Source of the DNA: Candidatus Nanohaloarchaea archaeon | GTDB taxonomy: Archaea > Nanohalarchaeota > Nanosalinia > Nanosalinales > Nanosalinaceae | DNA: 64,000 nucleotides | NCBI GenBank assembly: GCA_047617985.1 | Contig: JBLGBS010000003.1 | Span: 1-64,000, forward strand | Direction of reading: 5' to 3' | In this document: one piece after another, positions 7,273-48,354 of the stretch | Numbering within the stretch: position 1 is the stretch's first letter | How the letters are laid out: each line of letters opens with the position of its first letter | The notes under the pieces: model-generated | Database searches by the model: none | Seen by the model: only the letters and a program-made list of their open reading frames with translations | What the model was told of the DNA's origin: nothing | Translations under genes and position numbers: made by a program

Positions 7273-8130
7273 CTAAATCAGGATCAAAAGAACCGCCGCT
7301 AAAATTGTTATTGCTCCTAGTGCTTTCCGGATTAATTCCTTCTCTCTGAAGTATCTTCCTCCTACAAAAATCCCTAGAATACCGGAGATCTGTTTGATTA
7401 TAGTTACTTCAGATGCTGAAATATACGAATATGCATATATTGTTACAACAGCTCCCAGAGATGTTAAAACGGCTAGAAGAATAATATTTTTGTCCAAGTA
7501 GTACTCTTTTTGAATACTTATCGATCTCTTCTTCTTCCATATCCAGAATCCTAATAGACCTAGTACGAAGGTAAAGTATGAGAAAAGATATGGATCTGAG
7601 TTGGTAGCTCCAAATCTTGATACAATCGCCCAGATTGCGAATATTATAGCCACGAGAATCGAAAGCATTCCGCCTTTGTTCTTCATGTTCTCAACAGGTT
7701 CGAGTAAGCCATCGTCAGCAACTAGTATGTATGAGCCTAGAGCTCCTAAAAGAGCACCAAATATCATTACTGGCTGAAAAGTTATTCCGAGAATTAGAGG
7801 TTCTAGAAATGCTACAAAAATAGGTGTTGTCTGTCTTAAAGACTCTGTCACAGAAAAATCCGCAATTCTCATCGCCTCTATATATAGGTAGGTAGTAGAG
7901 ATTACTACCCCAGTCGATATTAGTAGTGCCGTAATAACTCCTATAGACCAGTTAAACCCGTTTAGATAATAAATAAAAGCTGCAATTGGGGATAGAAATA
8001 TGGTGCCGTAGAGCTGTCCCAAATATCCAATTTCGATAGACCTCAGATCTGAAGACACTAACTTTCTAACTGACTCTCTTAACGTTGATGTTACAGCTGA
8101 GATAAGAGCAATAATTACTCCAATCTGCAT
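7273..8130 (-). CDS. DMT/EamA-type membrane transporter
   Basis: About 10 predicted TM helices and a two-repeat topology. It is embedded in the nucleotide-sugar operon. Confidence 0.55.
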   Translation of the reverse strand: MQIGVIIALISAVTSTLRESVRKLVSSDLRSIEIGYLGQLYGTIFLSPIAAFIYYLNGFNWSIGVITALLISTGVVISTTYLYIEAMRIADFSVTESLRQTTPIFVAFLEPLILGITFQPVMIFGALLGALGSYILVADDGLLEPVENMKNKGGMLSILVAIIFAIWAIVSRFGATNSDPYLFSYFTFVLGLLGFWIWKKKRSISIQKEYYLDKNIILLAVLTSLGAVVTIYAYSYISASEVTIIKQISGILGIFVGGRYFREKELIRKALGAITILAAVLLILI

Positions 8131-25096: not shown

Positions 25097-25399
25097 TCAA
25101 TGATTCTTTCGGTGTTTTTCTGCGTACTTTTTCCAATTGTTTTTGAGAAAATCATAGGCTGAAAAAGCATCTAGATCTGGCTTCTCAATCTTAGGTTTCC
25201 TTGATTTGAAAAGACAGTCCATGTGGACGTATCCGTGTGAGTAGTCTATTCTAACTATTTCGATTTCTTCCTGAGATGAGTCAGTAAAGTGTATTGTAAC
25301 TGCAAAATCTCTTATATTCTGGAATGATGGCTTAACTTTTCTAGTAATTGAATAAAATCTTCCTTTATATTTTCCAAGCAGTTCTGTATTCTTTTCCAC
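25097..25399 (-). CDS. Small basic protein in an AT-rich islet (possible DUF6516-like / toxin-like)
   Basis: 100 aa, rich in K/R/H, unlike the surrounding acidic proteome. Local GC is clearly lower than the neighbours. Confidence 0.4.
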   Translation of the reverse strand: MEKNTELLGKYKGRFYSITRKVKPSFQNIRDFAVTIHFTDSSQEEIEIVRIDYSHGYVHMDCLFKSRKPKIEKPDLDAFSAYDFLKNNWKKYAEKHRKNH

Positions 25400-25486: not shown

Positions 25487-25816
25487 ATGGAGTCAGAAAT
25501 AGAAGAAAGAAATTCTAGCGAAGAATCATTCGCCAATAAACTGGCTAAAGCAGGTGAAACCGATTTTTATGTTATCAGTCTTGAAGATGCAGAGAAATTG
25601 TTAACTGAAAAAAGAATGGAAATCATTTATGTTCTCAAAAATCAAGAAGTATCTTCTAGTAGAGAGCTTTCTAGGGTTTTGGATAGAGATATTAAACAAG
25701 TCTCAGAAGATCTCAATCTATTACATGAGATATCAGTGATTGAGTTTAAACAAAAAGGCAATAGGAAAATACCGCAGCTCAGGCACAAGAATATTTTCAT
25801 ACAGCCAGTAGTTTAG
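25487..25816 (+). CDS. Small HTH DNA-binding protein (in the AT-rich islet)
   Basis: 109 aa. The central SSSRELSRVLDRDIKQVSEDLNLL resembles a winged-helix recognition helix. It is divergent from the basic protein. Confidence 0.45.
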   Translation: MESEIEERNSSEESFANKLAKAGETDFYVISLEDAEKLLTEKRMEIIYVLKNQEVSSSRELSRVLDRDIKQVSEDLNLLHEISVIEFKQKGNRKIPQLRHKNIFIQPVV

Positions 25817-41263: not shown

Positions 41264-41827
41264 ATGGAAGAAAGAAAAATCACTGATACCGAAAAAATCG
41301 CACAGGACAAGATCGAAAGCAACTTTGACTATGTTCTGAGAACTACTCCAAGAGCCATCGAAGAATTTGAAGAAGAACATCCGGATATCTGTGAAATAGT
41401 CAACCGGAAAGTACAGGAGCAGGGTGTAGAAAATCTCGGCAATGTATTTAGGCCTGGTGTACCGGATTTTCTGGGATTTAATGAGGATGGAAGCTACCGG
41501 TTTATAGAGGTTAAAGGCGGTGGAGACGGTTTAAGACATTCACAGCTGAAATGGTTCAGAGATTTCCAGGATCTGAAATGCGAGATCTGGTTTACCGACA
41601 GCAACGAAGGGATAACCGAGAAAATGAAGTCAGACAAGTTAGAGCTTTACAGCCTGAAAACAGGTTCTGTAAACACAGGAGAAGCCAAAATAGAGGACTC
41701 CAGCAGAGAAGGTTTTCTATCAGTTCAGATACCGGAGACACTGGCAGCGATGATGGAACTCGACTCTGGTGACAAGGTAAACTGGAGTGTGAAGGATCGG
41801 AAAACACTGGAACTTGACACTGACTGA
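41264..41827 (+). CDS. VRR-NUC (PD-ExK) nuclease domain fused to a C-terminal AbrB/SpoVT-like swapped-hairpin domain
   Basis: PDFLGF...YRFIEVKGGGDGLRHSQLKWFRDF is the VRR-NUC E-x-K ...S..Q..W pattern. The C-terminus LSVQIPETLAAMMELDSGDKVNWSV resembles AbrB/MazE. Confidence 0.5.
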   Translation: MEERKITDTEKIAQDKIESNFDYVLRTTPRAIEEFEEEHPDICEIVNRKVQEQGVENLGNVFRPGVPDFLGFNEDGSYRFIEVKGGGDGLRHSQLKWFRDFQDLKCEIWFTDSNEGITEKMKSDKLELYSLKTGSVNTGEAKIEDSSREGFLSVQIPETLAAMMELDSGDKVNWSVKDRKTLELDTD

Positions 41828-42872: not shown

Positions 42873-43001
42873 ACCCGTCTTAACCCTTTATAGGTAAACT
42901 GAACTAGTCTGAGAGACCTTTATATGATGGAGACTGATGAGGATAAAGAGGTCTACCAGAAAGGAACACCTGAATACTACCAAGCCTGGAATAAATAGGA
43001 T

Positions 43002-43820
43002 TTAAAGCTCCAGCCTCGTCTTCAAACCTTTAACCAGTTTATCGCTGAAAATTGACTTGTAAGCATCCAGAGGACGGAAATCTCCATCCCCGGAGAAGAT
43101 CATTGCACGGTATTTATCTTTTCGTGGTAGTTTCGTAGCTTCAAAATAGAAATCACCGAACTCCGATTCAAACCTGTACATATCTCCATCGAAAACCTCT
43201 TCCTCAAACTCGAAGAAGTATTCTATATCCTCGGAATCTACAAAGTACAGTTCTCCTTTGTAATTGGCTTCATGCAGGTGCGGAGCAGGATTTATTTTTT
43301 CAAGGGAGTTGAAGAGTGTCAGAAGCTCGTCTTTTTCAAGAGGCTTGGCCTCTGTCTGATACCAGCCATCATTGTGCTCCTGAAGCCAGATATCCTTACC
43401 TCTCTCCTTTAGATCTGTCTCCGCAAGATAGCCTCCAGTAAGAGGAACAAAACGATACTCCCTTGGAACAGATAATTTTTCAGCCAGAGATAAACTCCGC
43501 AGATCACCGGTTCCTGATATTTCGGGTGGGTTATTCCAGTCCTGACCACTCCATCTCTCAGCCAGATTCACCATTTGTCCAATCGTGTAATCCTGTTTTG
43601 TGGAGGCCAGATGCTCGAAAACTTCTTCCGGCGGAACATTATCTAACCTTGTAGAATCAGCGATGTACTCAAGATCTTCAGCAAAACCATCTCTGTCAGC
43701 CCACTCCTCAAGAAACTCGGCCATTTCCTCTCCAGAATATATTTCACGAGAATTAAGAGTTAAACCTTCCAGAATCTCCTCCGGCATCAACTCCTCATCT
43801 TCCTCAGAATTCCTGCTCAC
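43002..43820 (-). CDS. Hypothetical acidic protein
   Basis: 272-aa ORF with the composition of the native proteome. Confidence 0.4.
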   Translation of the reverse strand: MSRNSEEDEELMPEEILEGLTLNSREIYSGEEMAEFLEEWADRDGFAEDLEYIADSTRLDNVPPEEVFEHLASTKQDYTIGQMVNLAERWSGQDWNNPPEISGTGDLRSLSLAEKLSVPREYRFVPLTGGYLAETDLKERGKDIWLQEHNDGWYQTEAKPLEKDELLTLFNSLEKINPAPHLHEANYKGELYFVDSEDIEYFFEFEEEVFDGDMYRFESEFGDFYFEATKLPRKDKYRAMIFSGDGDFRPLDAYKSIFSDKLVKGLKTRLEL

Positions 43821-43897
43821 ACCAACTAAATAACAGGTAAAAAACTAAATAAGCAACCCGATCGCTATATATCCAGCTACCAAGCCATGAGTAAAAA

Positions 43898-44371
43898 CTA
43901 ATAATTAATCTCTTTTACAAGAGTATCTAGACGCCTTATTATAACGAAAATAAATAGAAAGTACTGTATTGACATTGACCAAAATAGAACTTCGATTGCC
44001 CAATAAACAGTAAACAATCTCATTAACACGATTACGGAAACTAAGCTAACGACTAAAACTACACTGTATGAAGTATATAGACGCAGACTCCTAAAGAAGT
44101 CCTGAATTATATCCTCATCAGATCCAGTATGAGCAGCTAAGGGGCGTACCAAGCTAAAAACCGTCGTTATAGAAAATCCAGCCAATATAGAAAAGATGGT
44201 TCCGAGGAGGCTCAGATTGGACTGATTTATTTGGGTAAAAGTCGTAACTATAAGACCCATTATTATAGGAAGAGCTATGAAATATTTCAAAAAATATCTC
44301 TCTGATTCTTCATCTGCTATTTCCGTGTAAGCGTTCTCTATTATTGTTTTAGGATTTATTATGCCTGACAT
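43898..44371 (-). CDS. Small integral membrane protein (about 4 TM) in an AT-rich islet
   Basis: Four hydrophobic helices. Its start overlaps the stop of the upstream 315-aa gene by 1 nt. Local GC is markedly lower than the flanks. Confidence 0.45.
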   Translation of the reverse strand: MSGIINPKTIIENAYTEIADEESERYFLKYFIALPIIMGLIVTTFTQINQSNLSLLGTIFSILAGFSITTVFSLVRPLAAHTGSDEDIIQDFFRSLRLYTSYSVVLVVSLVSVIVLMRLFTVYWAIEVLFWSMSIQYFLFIFVIIRRLDTLVKEINY

Positions 44372-45318
44372 TATCTGAAGTTAGTAATCTTTTCACCTTG
44401 ATAAGATTTTTCTAAATCGTCTACTAGGCCTCGAGCATTTTTAGCTAAGCTCCATTGCTTCACCCTACCATCCGAAATTTTAACATGGCTCTTATTTGTA
44501 TCTAAAACTTCTACCATCTTCACTGTGTCCCCATCGTCCAGCGATATAGTCCTTTCCGAACCTTTATCATTCACTACCGCACTTATATCTGCTATATCAA
44601 AATCTTCTAATCGAGATATACCTATCTCCTCATCCTGCTCTAGTGCATCTGCTAGCCTATTCAACCTATATGGAAACTCTCCTCCTTTTCCAGGCTTTAT
44701 TTCTATCATTTGGCGTGTTCTATTATCTAGCTCATCACTAACACGTTCTCCATTTAGTCTTTCTTCATGGTTTAACTCAATTTTTGGTGCTTTCTGAGTT
44801 TCTAATTTAAATCTAAGGAGATTATCCGACTTCCTTAACTGACGAACTACATCTCTAGTATAAACCGGATCGATCTCTATTTTTATCTTATCAGACTCGA
44901 TAGAATCTGATAATTGTTTCTGAAACTCGGTTTTAGCTCCTTTACCTTGAAATTCTTCTAGAATAAGAACTGCTGAGTCTTCAGGAAGTCCATCTGTACG
45001 GGTTAACAAGAAGAAAAAATCCATTTCCATAGAATCGTTGACATCTCGAGCGTTTTCCTCTCTTTCACCTGTTTCAACATTATACCTGTCTTCCTGATAT
45101 CCCCATTCTCCCGTCCGAACTCTACCAATAATTAGCTTCTCTCCTTGATGTAAGCGTTTAACTGAAAATGTCTTTTGCCTAGACTCAGCTACTCCTGCTT
45201 CCTCTAACATCTCAGAAAGTTTAGTGTATATAAACTCTTCGAAGGACTCATAATCTCTTACTACGGGTATATTTTCAGGTTCTATTGAGATTGCAAACAT
45301 ATCCTCCAGATCTTTCAA
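44371..45318 (-). CDS. Hypothetical cytoplasmic protein (315 aa) in an AT-rich islet
   Basis: Its K-rich, less acidic composition and AT-rich codon usage contrast with the neighbours. No family recognised. Confidence 0.45.
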   Translation of the reverse strand: MKDLEDMFAISIEPENIPVVRDYESFEEFIYTKLSEMLEEAGVAESRQKTFSVKRLHQGEKLIIGRVRTGEWGYQEDRYNVETGEREENARDVNDSMEMDFFFLLTRTDGLPEDSAVLILEEFQGKGAKTEFQKQLSDSIESDKIKIEIDPVYTRDVVRQLRKSDNLLRFKLETQKAPKIELNHEERLNGERVSDELDNRTRQMIEIKPGKGGEFPYRLNRLADALEQDEEIGISRLEDFDIADISAVVNDKGSERTISLDDGDTVKMVEVLDTNKSHVKISDGRVKQWSLAKNARGLVDDLEKSYQGEKITNFR

Positions 45319-45396
45319 TCTGGATTTGATAAGGTACTATTTTGTGAGTTGTCATGTTATCACATAGAAAAGGAAAGAGAAGTTAGACCTTTCGGC

Positions 45397-48354
45397 CTAA
45401 CACTTGCTGAACCCGCAGTCAGGGCACTTGTTGCATCCCTCGACTAGCTGGAGCATCCCCCCGCATTCTGGGCATTCCGGGTTTCCGCCGTTCTGAATGA
45501 TTGCTGCGGCGTCCGCCTTTTGCTCTTGGTCTGTCTTTGGCTGTGTTTCTCCGGTTGCTTCTGTGTCTGTTCCACCGAAGTTTTCGACGGTTTGCTGTGT
45601 GTCGTGCCCCATATGCCTTTTCATGGCTTCTGCGATTGCGTCAGGTACTGAGTGGATCTGTGTTCCCTGATCCCATGCGATCTGAGGTGACCGGATGTCG
45701 TCCAGCTGTTTCACTACTTCGTCTGCGTCCGCTCCAGTTCGAAGTGCCAGTGAGGTCATTCGGCCTAGTGCCTGTGTAAACGACTGTGTGTAGCCTCCTG
45801 ATTTTCCTAGGTTGGCGAAGACTTCGAACGGTCCGTTGTCTTCTGCGTCGTTGATTGTGACGAACAGGTCGCCGTACGCAGTCTCTATTTCCTGTGTGGT
45901 TCCTGAGACTACCTTTGGTCTTTCTTTGACTCCTTTGTTGGCTCCCATGCTTGTGTGGTCGCCGTTGCCGGAGTCATCTGCCTGGACATTTTCCTGTGTT
46001 ACTTCTTTCTCCAGTTCTTCCTTGTCTTCGACAGTTTCTGCTTCAACCCCGTCCTCTGTGTTGATGACTTTGAGGCCTGCTGTTTCCTTGATGCCTGTTG
46101 CTTCTGCGAATTCTTCTGAGGATACGAAGTCTTCGACTCCTCCTTTCTCTTCTACAAGTTCGGAGATTGCGTCGACTGTATCCATGTCAGTTACAGTGTT
46201 TTCTGCGTTGGTCTGCATAACTTGGACATCTCTTGTCCCGTCTCTGTAGACTGTCATGCCTTTGATTCCTAGATCGTAGGCGAGCATGTATGCTTCTCTG
46301 ACATCTTCTCTTGTTGCTTCGTTAGGGAAGTTGCAGGTCTTTGAGATTCCTGAGTGGTTGTGTGTCTGGAATGCTGCCTGGATCCGGACATGTTCTTCAG
46401 GTTTGACCTGGTCTGAGGTTTTGAAGATTTTCTTGATATGCTGTGGAAGGATCTCATCTGAAATGCTTTCGATTCCCTCCCATTCGTTGTTGCGCATCTT
46501 CTGTTCTGCGTCTTCCTTGACTTTCTCGACATCGACATTGTTTGCTGTTAGAGCTCTGATGAAGTAGTCATCGAACTCGACAAGCATGTCCTCTCCCTGA
46601 ATGTCTTTCGCTACATTCTTGAAGTAGGCGACCTGATAGATTGGTTCACATCCTCCTGAAGTGTTTCCAATCATTGAGGTGGTTCCGGTTGGTGCGATTG
46701 TGACGGTGTTATGGTTTCTCATCTTGATTCCGTCTTCGTACTCCTGTGGATCCATTCCGCCGGTGTATCTTCTGAACCATTCTTCGTGGTCGGTTGGGTT
46801 CGCCCATTTGGATTTCTCCCATTCGTCGAACTCTCCTCTGACATCTGCAAGTCTATTGGATTCTTCGATCGACCATTTTGTGATGAGTCTCTGGATTTCC
46901 TTTGCTGCGACAATTGATTCGTCTGACCCGTACTCGATTCCTAGCTGGATCAGCATCTGTGCGAATCCCATAAGCCCGAGTCCGACTTTTCTCATTGAGC
47001 TGACTTTGTCCTCAATTTCTTCAAGCGGGAAGTCAGACATTGTAACTACATTGTCGAGGAACCGTGTGCCTTTCTTTGCTATTTCCTCGAACTTGTCCAT
47101 TCGGAGTGCGTCCTGCATGTAGTCCTCCATCGCTTCCTCTAAACCTTCCTGTGTTGTGTAGTCGTAGTCCGGGTGGTTGGCTTTCCATTCGATCCAGTCG
47201 AGCCCCATTCCGTCTCCCTGGTCTTCTACCATCAGGGAAAGGTTGATGTGGCCGAGGTTGCATGCCTCGTAGTTTTCAAGCGGCTGTTCTCCACAAGGGT
47301 TTGTTGCCTCGATTCTGTGCTCCGGATGTTTCTCTGTGTCGAATGAGTGTTCTTTGTTAGTCTCATCGTACATGAAGAGTCCTGGTTCTCCGTTTCTCCA
47401 TGCTCCGTCGACAAGTGTCTCCCAGATAAATCGGGCTGGAAGTGTCATCTCTTCTCCGACTTCGAGGTCGAGATCGTATTCTTTGACTTCTTCTGAGAAT
47501 GTGGATGCGAAGTCTCTCCAGAAGTTGTCGTCCTTACCTTGGTCGGATCCTGCTGCTTCAGGGTACCATTCTTCATCGGAGTTGTAGAACTGTGCTGTCA
47601 TCTCCTTGACTTCGAACGGTTCGTCGGTTCGAGGGTTGATCAGTGTGTATTCCTCGTCGTTTTTGACGGCTTCCATGAAGTCGTCTGTTAGTCCTACAGA
47701 AATGTTGAAGTTGGAGAGGTTTCCTTCCTTTCTCTTTGCGGTTATGAATCGAAGGATGTCAGGGTGGTCGACCTTCATAATTCCCATCTGGGCTCCTCTT
47801 CTCTTTCCGCCCTGCTTGATGGTTCCACACATAGTATCGAAGACCTGCTGGAAGCTCATAGGCCCGGAGGATACTCCTCCTGTCGATCCTACAATATCTC
47901 CTTTAGGTCTCATTAAGTGGAATGGATATCCCATTCCTCCTCCTGACTGGAAGATCTTTGCTGCGTCGTGTACTTTGTTGAAGATTGAGTCCATGTCGTC
48001 TTCAGGGTGTACAACGAAACAAGCGGATAGCTGCTGGAGTTCTGCTCCCGCGTTCATCAGTGTAGGGGAGTTAGGCATGAACTCCAGGTTGCTCATCATT
48101 TCGAAGAATTCCTGCCAGCTGTCTTCATAATCGACATCATCGTATTCTTTGTCCGGCTGCGCGACATTTTTTGCAACCCTTTCAAACATTTCCTTTGGGG
48201 TTTCCTGCACTTCGCCGTTCTCATCCTTGATGAGGTAACGGGCAGGAAGTATCCTGTCGTGAGCGTTCTCTGTCAGTCTTTCTTCTACGGTTTCGCCTGT
48301 AACCCTTTTTACAGGTAGTTTAAAATCAGTTTTTTGCTTAGCGTTTGTTGCCAT
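45397..48354 (-). CDS. nrdJ: Adenosylcobalamin-dependent ribonucleoside reductase, class II
   Basis: The catalytic segment [21 protein letters not shown] and the C-terminal zinc ribbon CPECGG...CNKCPDCGF are typical of class II RNR. There are halophile-style acidic insertions and no intein signature. Confidence 0.85.

Follow-up and report, generated by a model that had tools for sequence, protein, structure and literature searches.

The window analysed here is a 64-kb stretch of a Candidatus Nanohaloarchaea metagenome-assembled genome (MAG), and our subject is an AT-rich islet within it, read from the minus strand, of two genes that we call A and B. In an open reading frame (ORF) scan gene A spans 44371-45318 (-) and encodes 315 amino acids (aa) from TTG 45318; the public annotation begins it at ATG 45300, for 309 aa, and the product is 100% identical to the NCBI entry 'MAG: hypothetical protein ACI8Z7_000269'. 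Gene B is co-oriented with gene A, and one base is common to the TAA stop of A and the ATG of B. The pair sits 40-80 nucleotides (nt) 3′ of nrdJ (45397-48354), and nrdR also adjoins. A scan for consensus elements only gave no clear archaeal promoter upstream of gene A. The coordinates of the islet and its borders are collected in Table 1.

Composition sets the islet apart. The GC content of its 1421 bp is 0.365, the lowest among segments of the same size in the 64 kb (z = -3.67, from a 64-kb mean of 0.4505 and sd of 0.023; 0 of 5974 non-overlapping windows are as low). GC at third codon positions (GC3) is 0.289 in gene A and 0.318 in gene B, against 0.475 +/- 0.057 in 66 other ORFs. At the right edge of the AT-rich stretch, near 43800, GC climbs from 0.28-0.38 to 0.45. 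An earlier sequence-only reading had described a gene pair with overlapping stop and start, an AT-rich island directly against the 3′ end of nrdJ, and a B product with four transmembrane (TM) helices, and all of this holds. It had also taken A to be rich in K and R, weakly acidic and foreign to the acidic proteome around it, which does not hold: the isoelectric point of 4.75 and the D+E content of 21.9% are typical of the window, and K+R (15.2%) is at the upper end of the window range, still inside it.

Table 1. Coordinates and proposed identities of features in and at the borders of the islet.
Feature	Position	Strand	Description
Gene A as now readable	44371..45300	-	309-aa ORF, internal ATG 45300 to TAA 44373-44371; RexA-like soluble protein
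Severed ancestral 5′ end of gene A	45275..45355	-	ATG 45355, 26 codons (MTTHKIVPYQIQIERSGGYVCNLNRT), TGA 45277-45275
Gene B	43898..44371	-	157 aa; proposed RexB-like membrane effector
Hairpin GTTAGGCCGAAAGGTCTAAC then T-rich tract	45382..45401	-	overlaps nrdJ stop; left islet border; possible nrdJ terminator
19-nt motif just 3′ of gene B	43877..43895		right border of AT-rich stretch; possible shared terminator or scar

Family, fold and pairing of A and B

Hidden Markov models (HMMs) from Pfam, PADLOC, PHROGs and NCBIfam, scanned over A, B and four to five adjoining genes, matched neither A nor B. A word-indexed search found a sole homologue of A, at 48% identity, and there too a B-like gene overlaps downstream. 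Exhaustive HMMER search of 1.84 billion cluster representatives yielded 144 relatives of A at E<1e-3, nearly all of 290-340 aa. The 67 members that were aligned had no meaningful Pfam or PADLOC match, and PDB sequence searches with A profiles of 2 and 67 sequences returned nothing.

A family search by Foldseek and by PADLOC and Pfam had been proposed for the pair; the curated models, as seen above, gave nothing, and the structural side gave a fold for A. The AlphaFold2 (AF2) model of A, built on the family alignment, has a predicted local distance difference test score (pLDDT) of 85.7 and a predicted TM-score of 0.79. Searched with Foldseek against the PDB, it matched only E. coli RdgC and lambda RexA at E<1e-3, both with probability 1.0 and RdgC in second place; this is the same set that Adams et al. 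gave as the relatives of RexA (PMC11077077). The predicted order of secondary structure, with a beta-sheet at the N-terminus, then an inserted alpha/beta domain and finally a long helix that returns to the first domain, agrees with the published RexA architecture, in which a globular beta-sheet domain is split by a dimerisation-type domain and closed by a C-terminal helix. The profile of 67 A members also reached gp30 of mycobacteriophage Sbash, a RexA-like defence protein with experimental validation, in hhalign (probability 96.4%, E 1.2e-9, 261 columns); the controls with the same profile were non-significant, at E 0.2 for lambda RexA and E 0.66 for E. coli RdgC. By analogy with RexA and gp30, A would dimerise and bind DNA non-specifically. 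Membership of the RdgC family itself was rejected, since no A member matched Pfam RdgC (PF04381) at E up to 10 and the hhalign value was likewise poor; RdgC is moreover a stand-alone housekeeping gene, whereas A is always paired with B and patchily distributed.

In protein B an N-terminal amphipathic helix precedes four long hydrophobic ones, of which the second and third are joined by a charged loop. Its AF2 model (pLDDT 70) places the helices at 22-45, 50-81, 86-119 and 124-156, in agreement with hydropathy. The B family comprises at least 460 matches at E<=0.01, about 165-185 aa long and with no Pfam matches, and the charged central loop is conserved across it. Weak PADLOC matches of B (PDC-M02B, E 0.007; a 2TM effector, E 0.17) were set aside as hydrophobic noise. 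The gene appears to be under-annotated: the 166-aa B of strain M3_22 (CP046106.1; L007 10981-11481) is missing from the gene calls of its record, and the 172-aa B of the Natrinema salinisoli plasmid NZ_CP084471.1 (L022 7035-7553) is likewise uncalled; each overlaps its A by 4 nt.

HMMs for A and for B, applied to all the loci fetched, located A followed directly by B, with an overlap or a gap of <=11 nt, in 13 distinct places. The nanohaloarchaeal ones are the chromosomal pair of the window lineage, L001/2, L020 and CP046106, the M3_22 locus whose B is unannotated. Among the others, the pair of a Caldilineaceae MAG lies among type I restriction-modification, GmrSD, PIN/MazE, resolvase and RHS genes; that of L012 is downstream of a divergent cI/cro-like helix-turn-helix (HTH) pair and near Fic, Vsr and HicA; that of L013 is among transposases, ImmA/IrrE and a P4 cII-like gene; a Methanothrix pair adjoins ParE and a nucleotidyltransferase; and that of a Pseudomonas Pf prophage stands between the integrase and repressor C/excisionase. 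Further pairs were found on a 63%-GC contig, in Rippkaea orientalis PCC 8801, on the Natrinema salinisoli plasmid and on a Clostridium plasmid. The pair is richer in AT than the genes around it in all hosts checked. The copies of the window and of M3_22 lie on chromosomes and have no phage gene, integrase or repressor in their vicinity; residence on mobile elements is seen in their relatives, the Pf prophage and plasmid copies. A-B belongs to a large unannotated family that travels between bacteria and archaea by way of prophages, plasmids and defence islands. The nanohaloarchaeal subgroup had only one match (CP046106) among 185,579 GTDB species representatives.

The Natrinema plasmid carries another hypothetical pair about 3 kb downstream of A-B (L022 9882-11341), with products of 334 and 149 aa and a 5-nt gap between the genes; neither protein matched the A or B HMMs.

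We read the islet, with a probability of about 0.62, as a two-gene abortive-infection (virus-exclusion) module of the RexAB type, a distant and unannotated relative of RexAB. The mechanism that we propose is drawn from work on lambda, Sbash, CarolAnn and Pseudomonas putida; in the lambda, Sbash and P. putida systems, an excess of the soluble protein is toxic only when its membrane partner is present. If it behaves like RexA, Sbash gp30 and the P. putida RexA, the cytoplasmic A, with its RexA/RdgC fold, would be a dimer that clamps DNA non-specifically and acts as the infection sensor, and B, translationally coupled to A, would be a small four-helix effector in the inner membrane. Upon infection A would be triggered by a viral protein or by a DNA-protein intermediate of replication or recombination, and would engage the cytoplasmic loop of B between helices 2 and 3. 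B would then open or oligomerise into a channel, membrane potential and ATP would collapse, and virus replication would stop in an arrested or dying cell. What the data show is the fold, the gp30 homology at profile level, the pairing of the genes, their mobile settings, the presence/absence pattern and the frameshift; that A dimerises, binds DNA and contacts B, that B forms a channel and that the pair acts against viruses are inferences.

The frameshift in gene A and the slot behind nrdJ

The three other nanohaloarchaeal orthologues of A are 327-332 aa long and have the N-terminus MSTHKIVPYEIKL...NLQRTNNIPE. In the window the orthologous N-terminus is encoded in another frame and ends early (the severed 5′ end in Table 1). 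DNA alignment with the L007 and L001 orthologues puts the difference at a single extra base, T45277, and four more contigs of this population (L003-L006), from four separately assembled samples, share the insertion. It removes the first 26 residues, including the N-terminal strand motif L-x-P-Y-x-x-R that protein alignments give as a family consensus. Downstream of it A is open for 309 codons and keeps all conserved family motifs, and gene B is open throughout its 157 codons. Assembly error is ruled out by the agreement of five contigs, drawn from four samples, at a site that is no homopolymer, and T45277 is a real frameshift fixed in the population. Programmed frameshifting at ACC-TGA is unlikely, as no slippery P-site re-pairing is available (ACC to CCU), the GGAGG motif is 25 nt upstream from the stop, and all three orthologues keep the frame. 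This GGAGG (45303-45307, -) is 2 nt before the internal ATG 45300 and derives from Gly-Gly codons of the old frame.

The window copy is either expressed as an A shortened at its N-terminus, from ATG 45300, or is being lost. With a single insertion and both ORFs otherwise open, the lesion is recent or the truncated product is in use. The frameshift makes diminished or abolished activity of this allele a serious possibility, though the less likely one; in that case the window pair would be a pseudogene remnant, its AT-rich composition and its ORFs being leftovers without current function. The loss of a conserved N-terminal strand in all five contigs suits this explanation, as does the spacing of GGAGG, which is poor for reinitiation at the internal ATG; the full openness of what is left of both ORFs (309 and 157 codons), the retention of every downstream A motif and the intact B speak against it.

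Decay of A is also seen elsewhere. In Methanothrix sp. CP086218.1 (L015 7864-8546) an intact B is preceded by only a 46-aa C-terminal remnant of A, and the sister contig L016 has a full A of 339 aa; here, as in the window, the sensor has decayed and the effector persists. The CP086218 and window loci bear on a reversal of the proposed roles, on the pattern of mycobacteriophage Butters gp30/gp31, in which A would be the toxic or antiviral effector and B would sequester it until infection. Architecture and fold would suit this equally well, a frameshift truncating A would be an easy way of detoxifying the locus, and the Butters arrangement has been described for one of the five known Rex-like systems (PMC12894663). 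We nevertheless consider the reversal unlikely. The membrane protein is the effector in four of the five characterised systems (PMC12894663), and B persists both in CP086218 and in the window, beside a damaged A, which argues against a pure antidote, expected to be lost together with its toxin.

In all four nanohaloarchaeal carriers A-B stands directly 3′ of nrdJ, in lineages whose A has diverged to about 50-60% identity; the ORFs are intact in three of the four lineages. A scan of metagenome contigs with the nrdJ C-terminus as query found 20 further nanohaloarchaeal nrdJ loci (nrdJ 60-78% identical), none with A or B, and 16 of the 20 have >1.2 kb of downstream sequence. Two (L037 and L038) are empty sites, in which nrdJ is followed directly by a homologue of the 272-aa gene of the window. 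That gene was considered as a third component of the system and rejected: it is unlinked to A-B elsewhere, and in these two loci it follows nrdJ without them. In the window the 19-nt motif of Table 1 has a second copy, 84% identical and in direct repeat, 3′ of the stop of the 272-aa gene (42977-42995); the repeat may represent a terminator common to both genes or the scar of a rearrangement.

In the nrdJ tree L020, a carrier, is almost indistinguishable from L029 and L042, both of them without A-B. Its DNA identity with them, 88-90%, ends 16 nt past the nrdJ stop, and the slot of L029 (5798-7186) is filled by another abutting pair of genes (219 and 242 aa, no Pfam matches), which suggests that the slot 3′ of nrdJ is a variable hotspot. 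Compared with M3_22, the window has 76% identity in nrdJ, 71% in the PIN-KH ATPase and 60-63% in nrdR and the tRNA-binding protein; A is at 53% and B at 37%. Carriers that are nearer in nrdJ are also nearer in A. For this reason we prefer a single, old gain at a variable slot, with the pair lost repeatedly since; a hotspot that received it more than once is possible instead. A VRR-NUC nuclease gene is found at 41264-41827 (+) of the window (Pfam 3e-09), and its homologues of 69-73% identity lie about 2 kb from nrdJ in L030 (NAR1) and L043; the intervening genes of 227, 82 and 272 aa, with A and B, therefore form a variable segment.

The presence/absence polymorphism that the sequence-only reading had proposed to look for is thus real, extending to lineages almost identical at the nrdJ 3′ end. 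Its suggestion of horizontal acquisition stands as regards an accessory, mobile class of genes and falls as regards a recent strain-specific arrival, the same slot being occupied in four lineages. It had placed the islet among accessory, horizontally mobile modules of a sensor and a membrane effector, of the antiviral or abortive-infection class; the evidence supports this and names the module Rex-like, for function by analogy with the characterised systems.

Weighing the alternatives

Several observations weigh against a RexAB-type module. The link to gp30 needs the broad family profile and is invisible with the four nanohaloarchaeal sequences alone. The Pfam models for RexA (PF15969) and RexB (PF15968) and the PADLOC RexA and RexB models match none of the window proteins, the 67 A members or the 47 B members; these models match the lambda proteins at 1e-61 to 1e-109 and also miss the validated Sbash gp30 and gp31. 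For B the profile comparisons were non-significant (hhalign E 0.43 with RexB, 0.26 with gp31), and Foldseek gave nothing significant in BFVD (E 1.2). The best two matches there, at a TM-score of about 0.5, were an uncharacterised siphovirus protein and, at rank 2 (0.48), a 165-aa protein of Sbash; Sbash gene 31 encodes 165 aa, the same length, which makes a gp31-like identity for this match suggestive. The likeness of B to RexB rests on size, topology, position and the conserved charged loop; that of the P. putida RexB also rests on size, topology and position (PMC12894663). No prophage, integrase or other recognisable defence genes lie near A-B in the window, and no viral contig in IMG/VR carries the nanohaloarchaeal A subgroup. 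The frameshift may mean that this particular copy is inactive, and the conserved position beside nrdR-nrdJ in four lineages could reflect a cellular role. Even in lambda, exclusion as the true function of Rex is debated (PMC11077077).

A cellular role would make A an RdgC-like modulator of the nucleoid or of recombination, tethered or regulated by B and tied to nrdR-nrdJ and replication. The rank of RdgC among the structural matches and the invariable place of the nanohaloarchaeal pairs behind nrdJ fit such a factor, as do the housekeeping-looking neighbours at the Rippkaea and L009 loci and the RexB-independent DNA-binding roles of lambda RexA. We hold it to be very unlikely, for the distribution is patchy: the pair is missing from 20 related nrdJ loci, near-identical lineages included, and but one of the species-representative genomes was matched. 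The copies that reside in plasmids, a prophage immunity region and a defence island, the AT-rich composition of the pair relative to every host checked, the lack of any sequence signal to E. coli RdgC or Pfam RdgC, and a window population that tolerates the frameshift all point away from it.

We give as little credence to a module that serves the element carrying it, for maintenance, modulation of lysis and lysogeny (RexA biases the lambda switch) or superinfection exclusion, the nanohaloarchaeal copies being relics of an extinct integrated element: the adjacency to repressor C and excisionase in the Pf prophage, the HTH pair upstream in L012, the proposal that switch modulation is perhaps the primary role of RexA (PMC11077077) and the visible decay (the window frameshift and the Methanothrix remnant) would agree with it, but in the window and in M3_22 the pair has no element genes, such as a repressor or an integrase, beside it, and its persistence at one chromosomal site across lineages diverged to about 50% in A, with intact ORFs in three of four, argues for selection by the host.

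Significance and comparison with known systems

RexAB is the historical prototype of abortive infection and the oldest such system known, yet few systems are described: the literature searched gives five Rex-like systems, all on bacterial prophages (PMC12894663), and a DefenseFinder survey found RexAB only in Proteobacteria (PMC9090908). A system of this kind is already known; the curated models tested (Pfam and PADLOC) do not cover the family, its breadth or its presence in archaea, DPANN archaea included. The finding indicates a much larger sister family that the curated models miss, in Nanohaloarchaea, a Natrinema plasmid, Methanothrix and bacteria. Tentatively, A-B might be an archaeal branch, the first to be recognised, of a Rex-like immune family that extends across the prokaryotes. 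That family would have 144 or more A clusters (at 50% identity) and over 460 B proteins, missed by Pfam, by PADLOC and by the Pfam-based DefenseFinder models. If this is true, RexAB would be a widespread, ancient immunity module of sensor and channel that also serves DPANN symbionts and haloarchaeal plasmids. In a bolder variant, the fixed position behind nrdR-nrdJ would reflect the coupling of a sensing of replication or deoxynucleoside triphosphate status to a membrane effector.

The family offers many natural variants for studying how a RexA-type DNA clamp signals to a four-helix membrane effector, and it gives the DPANN archaea, which have tiny genomes and few recognised defences, a further candidate antiviral system. 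For the window, it accounts for the compositional island, and it presents a defence-type locus between maintenance and decay, with a frameshifted sensor beside an intact effector.

Two other low-GC sites were seen in the window. Divergent small genes at 25097-25399 (-) and 25487-25816 (+) form a second AT-rich islet (GC 0.34 and 0.336, GC3 0.31 and 0.28); they match Pfam DUF7718 (1.4e-12) and the HVO_A0114 family (1.9e-19) and may be another accessory or toxin-antitoxin-like pair. An EamA-family transporter gene at 7273-8130 (-) also has an unusually low GC for the window (0.379, GC3 0.326).

Among known two-gene defence systems, Kiwa likewise joins a small 4-TM protein, KwaA, to a soluble DNA-binding protein of ~310 aa, KwaB (DUF4868). 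It was ruled out by the opposite gene order, with KwaA upstream, by the want of any PADLOC or Pfam match, and by the fold of A, which matches RexA and RdgC. The gene order and coupling of A-B match those of rexA-rexB and of Sbash 30-31. Lambda RexA and RexB have no detectable sequence-level similarity to A and B, and the N-terminal amphipathic helix of B, some 25 residues long, has no counterpart in lambda RexB; lambda rexA and rexB are 15 nt apart and co-transcribed with cI, whereas A and B of the window overlap by 1 nt. The RexABpp system of Pseudomonas putida prophage P1 (PP_5643/PP_5644) is among the closest known systems and is prophage-encoded. The Sbash system is prophage-borne in Actinobacteria, in contrast to the window copy, which lies on the chromosome of a DPANN archaeon and has no prophage genes near it, and Sbash gp30, at 372 aa, is longer than A. 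In Sbash gp30/gp31 and in Gordonia phage CarolAnn gp44/gp43, as in A-B, the gene of the soluble protein overlaps a following one that encodes a small four-TM protein. Sbash gp31, a validated four-TM effector, has a charged central cytoplasmic loop like that of B, and within this loop R70 and D73 are needed for defence (PMC6426596).

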